Part shown: one piece after another, positions 6,819 through 8,319 of the stretch | How positions within the stretch are numbered: position 1 is the stretch's first letter | Layout: the number at the start of each line of letters is the position of its first letter | From: a virus | Lineage: Duplodnaviria; Heunggongvirae; Uroviricota; Caudoviricetes | IMG/VR virus record: IMGVR_UViG_2537562191_000038 | Location: 1 to 9,828 of that record | Strand: one strand, 5' to 3' | Length of the DNA stretch: 9,828 nucleotides | Program-made: the position numbers and the translations under genes | Notes under the pieces: model-generated | Databases searched by the model: none | The model's input: the letters and a program-made list of their open reading frames with translations, nothing else | What the model was told of the DNA's origin: nothing

Positions 6819-7622
6819 TCATTCCTCCAGAATTTTCGCTTTTACCGTTATGGTGCCGGTGGTTTGCTGCATATAAGCCAGGATAGGAAGTTCCGCCACA
6901 ACGGTGAGGTTCAATCCAACCGCGAACAGCCTGTTGTCGGCGGTGCCGGTGGTCAGATCCTGAAATGCGATTGATTTTTGCCCTTCTATGTAACAGGTAA
7001 CCGGTATCTCATAACCGCCGACATTGGCAATGTGAGTGAAAGATGCCTGCCCGAGGCTGGCATACATTCGTAGCCAGAATGCTAATGCAGTTGTAACCAT
7101 CCCAAGAGATTCCTTCTCGTCACTGGCTATCCATAGCGAATATTCCAGTGAGAAAGGGATAGTAGATACCAGGGCTTCAATCTCATCATTTTCATTGGTG
7201 ACATGCCCTTCATCGTAATTATCCCGGCACAGTTCACCTTCATAAATTGAAAACGCGGGAGAACGAGACAGATTCACAAGCGGCATTGCCAGCTTATTTA
7301 CTGGGCCAGCAGAGGCTGTATCTTTGCGCCCGGCGCGATCGGCTTCAAATGACGACAACCACTCCTTCACATCACTAAAAGTGCCGAGCGTTATGCGATC
7401 TCTTGGTGTGCGTTTCAGGAACTCCCTGAATGACTGGTTAGTGCGATCATTAAAGCTGACAACTTGTGAGTCGAATGCTTCGTTTAAAGCCTGTGCGAGC
7501 GCCGAATCAATGCCATCAATAGTGGCAAATTCCAGCTTACCGGTTGGAGTAAGACCTTTTTTCTTAAAGATGGCCAGTAGCCATTCCTGATTATTCAGAA
7601 TCACCGATGAAATTCCCTTCAA
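6819..7622 (-). CDS. Hypothetical protein, about 261-267 aa, start uncertain
   Basis: ORF in the same operon. Its stop (TGA) is 1 nt before the next ATG. The tracked start is a TTG at 7622 without an obvious ribosome-binding site; an in-frame GTG at 7604 preceded by AAGGGA is an alternative. Either start overlaps the upstream gene. Confidence 0.55.
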
Positions 7623-8319
7623 AGGCGCGTGAAGGCACGCAATAAAACAAACTGCCTACCCTGGCAGTGCCGTAATTGAATATTTTATGGATGTACCAGA
7701 AGCGGCGAATGGTTGTGCCGTCTGACAGCTGTTCCAGCCATTCGAGCATAGAACCCACTGGCACATTAACGGCGGCCAACCGAAGGATTAAAGCACTGTC
7801 GCTAATTCCCGTATTATCACTGCCGTCGTATAGCGCGTAGAAGGCGTCCATCTCATCCGGGCAGTCGAGGGCCGTTATCAGTTCTGGATCCTGATAGTCA
7901 TATATGCGTTGGTTCGGTTCTATTATTTCAGATGCCGTTTCAGGTGCATTTTTGTCTCTGTAAGGTATTGCGCGATACAGAACCGCATCGAATGAGTCAG
8001 GGTCTAGCTTGATTGCTTTGAGCCAGTCCATCCGCACAAGGTTATTAAAAACTGCATGACCTTGATAACGGTGGCGCACACCAGAATCACTAAGCAGGCC
8101 GTGATCCAGATTGGGAAGGTGATTGTCCTCCACAGGATCAACAATATTACCAACGTTAACACCATCGGTTTCGATTTCAGCATCAATATCTTCCTCTTCA
8201 ATCAGTTCAGAACCTTCGCCTGGAATATCCGGATCCGATTCGGTGTCCGGGAGGTTATCACCAGTCACTTGTTGTGATGGTTCTGTGTCCTCAAACATGT
8301 CATCAAAGAAACCAGCCAT
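7591..8319 (-). CDS. Hypothetical protein, 242 aa, with a strongly acidic N-terminal region of about 75 residues
   Basis: ATG at 8319 preceded by AAGGA at 6 nt; separated by 3 nt from the stop of the upstream gene. The first roughly 75 residues contain about 24 Asp/Glu and no Lys/Arg ([53 protein letters not shown]...). Confidence 0.6.

Follow-up and report, generated by a model that had tools for sequence, protein, structure and literature searches.

The closest described systems to the locus studied here are the head-to-tail connectors of phages P1 and T4. In P1, a cryo-EM study built gp7 into a 3.5 Å connector map, and the deposited model (PDB 9UMS) comprises Prt, PmgC, and gp7 (PMC12810830). 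Six copies of gp7 form a stopper ring under the dodecameric adaptor PmgC and above the tail terminator gp24, and the gp24 ring is the docking surface for gp7 (PMC12810830). The fold of gp7 was described as a helix, a beta-sandwich, and a long loop, and its N-terminal helix caps the helical bundle of the PmgC dodecamer (PMC12810830). In addition, the connector was unchanged on tail contraction, and its channel had a minimum diameter of ~40 Å, wider than the channels of Mu, E217, Pam3, and phiTE, with no closing loops described (PMC12810830). This open channel of 40 Å was described for virions (PMC12810830). Two peptides of gp7 were detected in virions in a proteomic study of 2022, which assigned no role to the protein, while gp24 was assigned to the T4 gp15 terminator by HHpred (PMC9024508).

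The T4 counterpart, gp14 (Hc2; PDB 9LU4), shares with gp7 its fold class and its place in the virion. Its residues 178-256 contain 17 D/E and 5 K/R and end in PFDNDFMD. In neck intermediates, which have no tail yet, this acidic region is disordered. It later fastens to the positively charged side of the gp15 ring, which contributes to expulsion of the temporary Hfq plug and to opening of the DNA gate (PMC12929587, PMC12929629). There are also small stoppers of the SPP1 gp16 type (Pam3, Bxb1, Chi, R4C, XM1, PhiTE, and Milano neck 2), in which the modelled chains have 100-150 residues. The structures of these small stoppers are without an acidic extension, and their sequence identity to gp7 is 4-13%.

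The DNA analysed here is a stretch of 9,828 nucleotides from a viral record of IMG/VR (hereafter the window), and the whole window matches P1-like plasmid prophages of E. coli, for example pO111_2. We found an intact open reading frame on the minus strand at positions 7591-8319, coding for 242 amino acids plus a stop codon. In a PDB sequence search over the full length, the product was identical to chain B of 9UMS ("Gp7") at 240 of 242 positions (E = 1e-164), and the two substitutions, N121D and P130S, both lie in a poorly conserved loop. The product also matched PHROG 1906 ("tail protein") over positions 1-245 of 245 (E = 3.7e-136). At the DNA level, positions 4025-8700 of the window are 98.5-99% identical to phages P1, P7, SJ46, and RCS47, and the annotated P1 record carries ban, dbn, 5, 6, 24, 7, 25, and 26 under the matched stretch. 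Thus, the DNA identity and the P1 annotation identify the ORF as the orthologue of gene 7 in a P1-like phage. Judged by its sequence, the encoded protein is gp7 of P1, which is already known and structurally solved: it has the same operon position and the same length, and the window copy differs by the two substitutions and by its host prophage, in which gene 25 and ban are broken by IS1203. Scans of gp7 against Pfam, NCBIfam, and PADLOC gave no family match, and its identification came from PHROGs and the PDB sequence search alone. Most plasmid and prophage records label this ORF "hypothetical" or "tail protein", and the correct annotation is head-to-tail stopper. The older annotation of gp7 as "tail stability" comes from amber-mutant work. 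Among sequenced phage isolates, the gp7 family was found only in P1-like phages.

The gene order of the window, 25'-7-24-6-5 on the minus strand, is that of the P1 late operon 26-25-7-24-6-5, and the same order was found in relatives down to 35% identity. The annotated P1 record places the transcription of genes 26 to 5 under the late promoter LP26. Downstream of gene 7 lies gene 24 (6819-7604, minus strand) for the tail terminator gp24, which is supported by the P1 annotation, PHROG 1767, HHpred in PMC9024508, and cryo-EM in PMC12810830; its first 14 nt are shared with the end of gene 7. It is followed in the same operon by gene 6 for the baseplate hub gp6 (5801-6817, minus strand) and by gene 5 for the baseplate spike gp5 (5176-5808, minus strand; P1 annotation, PHROG 430, and a Pfam Phage_base_V match just below the cut-off). 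On the upstream side, a 3' remnant of gene 25 occupies positions 8323-8705 of the minus strand. The remnant holds about the last 127 of 405 codons and is cut by an insertion sequence; it was recognised from the P1 annotation and the coordinate offset, and its last 78 amino acids matched PHROG 1722. Thus, the search for homologues and gene neighbours proposed in the initial annotation led to a known protein (PHROG 1906 and 9UMS_B) in a late operon, a P1 gene that had gone unrecognised in that annotation.

The junction of genes 25 and 7 is tight. The ATG of gene 7 lies 3 nt past the stop codon of gene 25 (8323-8325), and a ribosome-binding site read from the sequence, AAGGA (8326-8330, minus strand), stands 7 nt upstream of this ATG. 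The stop codon of gene 25 therefore sits between the AAGGA and the ATG of gene 7, with the ribosome-binding site inside the end of gene 25. This arrangement is consistent with translational coupling of the two genes.

The gp7 chain can be divided into two parts. The folded stopper domain is encoded by codons 82-242 and the stop codon (7591-8076, minus strand); it starts with a basic R-x-R and includes a helix at about residues 89-105, a beta-sandwich, and long loops at about residues 120-139 and 164-176. AlphaFold2 (AF2), run on gp7 with an alignment of homologues, predicted a helix and a beta-sandwich in residues 89-230. An N-terminal helix, a beta-sandwich or barrel core, and a long loop characterise the stopper fold, and gp7 has all three. 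The C-terminal 160 residues contain 24 D/E, 14 K/R, and 21 aromatic residues, with an aromatic-rich stretch at 205-217, and the earlier view of this part as globular and aromatic-rich agrees with the prediction.

The other part, codons 1-81 (8077-8319, minus strand), is a disordered polyanionic arm. The initial annotation had described the first 75 or so residues as about one-third Asp/Glu, free of basic residues, and rich in Pro and Gly, and the counts bear this out, with 24 D/E (32%), 0 K/R, 6 P, and 7 G in residues 1-75. The K/R-free run in fact reaches residue 81 (25 D/E) and is ended by R82, the first basic residue. The net charge of the arm is thus about -25 per chain and -150 per hexamer. 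The chance of an 81-residue run without K/R was estimated as about 4e-4 at the K/R frequency of the C-terminal part of gp7 itself and about 8e-5 at a frequency of 11%. In the charge-hydropathy test, residues 1-81 fell on the disordered side and residues 82-242 on the ordered side. In addition, the AF2 pLDDT was <50 at residues 1-7, 9-23, 25-68, and 73-86, with no secondary structure there. The suggested disorder and structure prediction therefore divided the protein as had been expected, into a disordered polyanionic region (residues 1-86 in AF2) and a folded one (residues 89-230).

The solved structure gives the same picture. The coordinates of 9ums_B include 158 of the 242 residues (a count of modelled residues, not a residue range), and the Foldseek alignment is one contiguous block of 157 columns with 99% identity. 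With a folded domain that extends from about residue 85 to 236-242, the unbuilt part amounts to roughly the first 77-84 residues. Residues 1-81 are thus intrinsically disordered and missing from the solved model, and the arm must precede the "N-terminal helix domain" of PMC12810830. The text of PMC12810830 does not discuss the arm and contains none of the words acidic, disordered, and negatively charged. Furthermore, trypsin-based proteomics is blind to residues 1-81, because a region without K/R offers no cleavage site. One third of gp7 is invisible in the solved structure, yet its character is kept across the family, and the arm recurs at either terminus. A known family in which the acidic region is a conserved folded element would have spoken against the initial view of this region. 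What we found is an assigned family in which the arm is unmodelled and is absent from many relatives.

Several functions had been suggested for such an acidic tail, and most of them do not fit. In the leading one, the region is a DNA mimic that neutralises DNA-binding defence proteins of the host, and we consider this extremely unlikely. The composition, highly acidic and K/R-free, is what speaks for it, and P1 is indeed a phage that carries anti-restriction proteins. However, P1 keeps its anti-restriction proteins (DarA, Hdf, and others) inside the head and encodes them elsewhere, whereas gene 7 belongs to a late morphogenetic operon behind LP26, which fits neither early expression nor delivery into the host. 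Ocr, ArdA, and other known DNA mimics are folded proteins with ordered charge arrays, whereas the acidic region of gp7 is predicted to be disordered and is missing from the solved model. PADLOC, whose library holds defence rather than anti-defence proteins, gave no match to gp7. Furthermore, gp7 is a fixed component of the neck that stays on the particle after contraction (PMC12810830).

The place of gp7 in the virion also bears on the other suggestions. A scaffolding protein or a transient chaperone does not fit, as gp7 forms a permanent stopper ring in the virion (PMC12810830). It is a permanent virion component of the head-to-tail connector. The idea of an assembly factor survives in part: the arm most plausibly aids neck-tail assembly, but the protein itself is a lasting part of the virion.

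The acidic character of the arm was found throughout the close family. In all 14 homologues of the alignment, the most distant at 35% identity, the N-terminal region spans 78-102 residues; D/E make up 16-35% of it, and it has 0-4 K/R. On this comparison of sequences, the acidic bias is inherited rather than accidental, and the arm is under selection, its acidic and K/R-poor character being kept while the sequence drifts. Conservation by blocks was 0.59 for residues 1-10 and 0.38-0.50 for residues 11-50, against 0.7-0.9 for the folded domain. Two islands stand out in the arm. The first is a hydrophobic-acidic tip at the free end, encoded by codons 1-11 (8287-8319, minus strand), which was recognised from the block conservation and from its recurrence: tips of the type M-x-x-[FY]-x-D-[DE]-[FLM]-[FL] were found again in representatives sharing <50% identity. 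The second, at residues 51-62, holds G-x-x-V-G-N-x-x-D-P (residues 53-62), with a block identity of 0.60.

To the wider family belong 89 gp7 relatives, which were obtained in a profile search of 1.84 billion representative proteins. These relatives and the earlier matches were re-scored with an HMM of the folded domain only, and 85 complete, Met-initiated proteins were classified by architecture. An N-terminal extension is present in 35 of them and a C-terminal extension in 19, and 31 are bare. Most of the N-terminal extensions are acidic and start with tips such as MGRYDDFFEE, MGYFDDLIDP, and MGKFNDFFEE. About 14 of the 19 C-terminal extensions are acidic with 0-3 K/R, and many C-arms end in a hydrophobic tip (for example, ..DDSTVIEV, ..NDDVMYL, ..GTVVEL, ..NDFMEL, ..DDDFLEI, and ..DDVGVL). 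The bare forms are domains of 157-186 residues, each with a start codon that overlaps the last bases of the gene upstream; thus, they have no hidden extension and are not the product of mis-called starts. Both the N-arm and the C-arm forms occur in the same gene order 26-25-7-24-6, that is, a small protein, a basic protein of 380-405 amino acids, the stopper, and a protein of ~250 amino acids, which in L003 and L005 is homologous to gp24. Taken together, these architectures identify the arm as an accessory to the stopper fold, which among the relatives may be carried at the N-terminus, carried at the C-terminus, or absent. Furthermore, the 31 relatives that work without an arm indicate that it is not needed for the core function of the stopper.

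This pattern can be read in a simple way. The arm might be a non-specific entropic and electrostatic bristle, which keeps gp7 monomers soluble and prevents ring formation or binding to the terminator until the monomers reach the adaptor of a filled head. Connector proteins are generally monomeric until templated, as in the head-completion proteins of SPP1 and lambda. In addition, the arm shows low conservation of sequence and good conservation of composition, is dispensable in many relatives, and can occupy either end of the domain, all of which would suit a bristle. However, the free end carries a conserved hydrophobic-acidic tip, whether the arm is N-terminal or C-terminal, and such a tip speaks for docking at a specific site rather than for a plain bristle. 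The second conserved island, G-x-x-V-G-N-x-x-D-P, is also against it. We therefore regard a purely non-specific role as rather unlikely.

The reading that we favour takes the stopper and its arm together. Six gp7 chains form the stopper ring, and residues 1-81 of each would be a disordered exterior docking arm for neck-tail joining; we give this joint explanation a probability of about 0.85. By analogy with T4 gp14, the best guide to its function, the arm would most likely lie outside the DNA channel and serve as a flexible means of electrostatic docking. What it captures would be a positively charged surface of a partner in assembly, and the ring of the tail terminator is the likeliest candidate. 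T4 gp14 and gp7 both have an unstructured, negatively charged terminal extension on a stopper. The extension is C-terminal in T4 gp14 and N-terminal in P1 gp7, and relatives of gp7 also exist with the arrangement of T4. In the uncultured C-arm relatives P0042, P0047, P0060, and P0105, the stopper domain is homologous to that of gp7 (E = 1e-55 to 2.5e-4), the gene order is 26-25-7-24-6, and the C-terminal acidic arm has 0-3 K/R and a hydrophobic tip. These relatives and the acidic region of T4 gp14 together favour an exterior docking arm.

Several points weaken the analogy with T4 and the docking reading built on it, among them the many relatives that do without an arm. Comparison of the gp7 family with T4 gp14 by hhalign gave a probability of 0.1 and an E-value of 0.77, so there is no detectable sequence homology, and the analogy rests on fold, position, and composition. 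In the T4 virion, residues 212-245 of gp14 are ordered on gp15, whereas the P1 arm is not ordered or not built in the 3.5 Å map. Any contact of the arm in the mature P1 virion would thus be transient, fuzzy, or of low occupancy, or the arm would have another role. The Hfq plug and the closing stopper loops of T4 have no described counterpart in P1. Against a docking arm, the P1 arm leaves the domain at the adaptor-proximal end (through the N-terminal helix), whereas the T4 extension is tail-proximal. A docking arm of gp7 would therefore need to run down the outside of the ring, and about 80 residues are long enough for this, although such a reach is itself part of the proposal. The charge of the putative partner did not discriminate: the net charge of the whole gp24-like terminator is -2 to -11 beside N-arm, C-arm, and bare stoppers. 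If the arm is the P1 counterpart of the T4 gp14 arm, electrostatic "fly-casting" by the stopper would be a general solution of head-tail joining in myophages.

The proposed position of the arm outside the channel can be set against the opposite placement. Six arms might instead fill the connector channel as an electrostatic gate that retains the DNA, perhaps needed for the unusually wide channel of P1. Such a gate would suit a minimum channel of ~40 Å without described closing loops (PMC12810830), and the six arms would bring about -150 charges to it. However, six chains of 81 residues (about 52 kDa, roughly 63,000 cubic Å) are estimated to exceed the room beside the DNA in a lumen of 40 Å by 50 Å. 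Furthermore, in T4 the loop and helix at the N-terminus of gp14 embrace the adaptor loop from the side (PMC12929587), and relatives of gp7 attach extra material at the C-terminus, which suggests that this terminus faces outward. The extra material belongs to the long extensions and fusions of distant relatives and resembles decoration domains, with weak Pfam matches to Ig_3 and CarboxypepD_reg, both below threshold. A gate inside the channel is thus very unlikely in our judgement.

Another partner for an exterior arm is encoded next to it. P1 gp25 is strongly basic, with a net charge of about +35 (+34 to +44 in its relatives). The arm may pair with gp25 rather than with the terminator. gp25 would then sit on the stopper for a time as a plug, clamp, or chaperone encoded by the phage itself, and it would seal or stabilise the filled head before docking of the tail. 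The two genes are neighbours separated by 3 nt, and the ribosome-binding site of gene 7 falls within the end of gene 25; a gene like gene 25 also precedes the stopper gene in both N-arm and C-arm lineages. In addition, gp25 gives a weak mass-spectrometry signal in virions and has no place in the cryo-EM model, and T4 offers a precedent, in which host Hfq sits on the negatively charged face of gp14 (PMC12929587). However, complementary charge of the products of neighbouring genes is weak evidence. In addition, gp25 gave no Pfam match even at E up to 1, its apparent CxC...CxH motif included, none in NCBIfam, and no PDB relative by sequence or profile. Furthermore, one bare-stopper lineage keeps upstream only a short protein like the C-terminal end of gp25, which suggests a link of gp25 to the folded domain or to something else. 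For these reasons, a temporary seal made by gp25 on the arm is doubtful to us.

A more elaborate version seems slightly more doubtful again. In it, the arm and its tip would form a conserved docking module that can be placed on either end of the stopper and is paired with the strongly basic, Cys/His-motif protein gp25. It would supply P1-like phages with a counterpart of the "second genome gate" of T4, where host Hfq sits on gp14, or with a dedicated clamp for joining neck and tail. If it were true, the pairing would give a function to two "tail stability" genes of P1 at once. The exterior docking arm modelled on T4 gp14 is still the reading that we prefer.

The prophage that carries this copy of gene 7 is disturbed by insertion sequences. 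Two copies of an IS1203/IS629-type element of the IS3 family are present in the window. Copy 2 starts at position 8706 with the inverted repeat TGAACCGCCCCGG and occupies 8706-9828 on the plus strand, running off the window end; in matching plasmids it is annotated as an IS1203-family transposase. This copy interrupts gene 25 at about codon 278 and separates genes 7-24-6-5 from LP26, the position of LP26 being taken from the P1 record. The exact junction of gene 25 and the insertion sequence was not found in one piece in any complete E. coli genome. Copy 1 (2718-4027, minus strand, 1310 bp) lies near the 3' end of the helicase gene ban, which it breaks 107 bases before the end. With ban and gene 25 interrupted and the operon separated from LP26, the prophage is probably defective, while the ORF of gene 7 is intact. 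The biological importance of this particular copy of gene 7 is therefore low. Copy 1 is flanked by a 3-bp GAA target duplication, and the two copies have an inverted relative orientation.

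The segment of the window that holds the neck and baseplate genes is bounded by two IS1203/IS629-type elements of the IS3 family, copy 1 at 2718-4027 on the minus strand and copy 2 at 8706-9828 on the plus strand. These two copies are mutually inverted, and between them lie the end of ban, dbn, genes 5, 6, 24 and 7, and what is left of gene 25 at its 3′ end (8323-8705). Together with the enclosed 4.7 kb, they look like a composite transposon. We found a GAA target duplication in ban at copy 1. Copy 2 breaks gene 25 near codon 278, so that genes 7-24-6-5 are cut off from LP26, the late promoter of the operon in P1. 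Thus, the prophage in the window is probably defective.

Between the two copies there is one mismatch, and two A-runs differ in length by a single base. The length changes are located at about 3654 and 3738 in copy 1 (about 9079 and 8995 in copy 2), roughly 85 bp apart, and because of them orfA encodes 81 aa in copy 1 versus 108 aa in copy 2. Either true frameshifts or sequencing errors in homopolymers could account for them.

In P1, the interrupted gene 25 (8299-9516 of the P1 locus L001, minus strand) encodes gp25, a 405-aa protein annotated as 'tail stability'. With a net charge of about +35, the protein is very basic, and its motif GRVSFDCDCGRHQYWYRY...GVACKHV, which is kept in distant relatives, matches SWIM-type zinc fingers in its CxC...CxH spacing. 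Searches of gp25 against Pfam, NCBIfam and PDB gave no match. The protein also goes unmentioned in the cryo-EM paper on P1 (PMC12810830). In lineages whose stopper lacks the acidic arm, the gene just upstream of the stopper gene encodes a short product (84 aa at L007 21-275; also L008 3-281), which could be aligned only to the last ~60 residues of gp25. Comparison of these sequences suggests that, within gp25, it is the C-terminal module that has a functional tie to the stopper gene.

In some distant relatives, the stopper domain is fused to large extra regions, as in P0039 (1171 aa), P0075 (710 aa), P0077 (342 aa) and P0103 (251 aa). Among these regions there are weak Ig-like and CarboxypepD_reg-like matches, neither of which reaches its Pfam cut-off. 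Possible explanations are neck decorations, fibres, or fusions produced by gene calling.

Upstream of ban, the window carries a gene for an SPFH/Band 7 domain protein (243-1070, plus strand; Pfam E = 1e-30), whereas P1 has tciA/tciB/tciC and tRNA genes at this place. This accessory-gene difference from P1 is shared by the window and pO111_2-type plasmids. In addition, the product of dbn (4131-5129, plus strand; PHROG 2518) is a probable GT4-type glycosyltransferase, judging from a Pfam Glycos_transf_1 match just below the cut-off. The dbn gene and the neck/baseplate operon are transcribed convergently.
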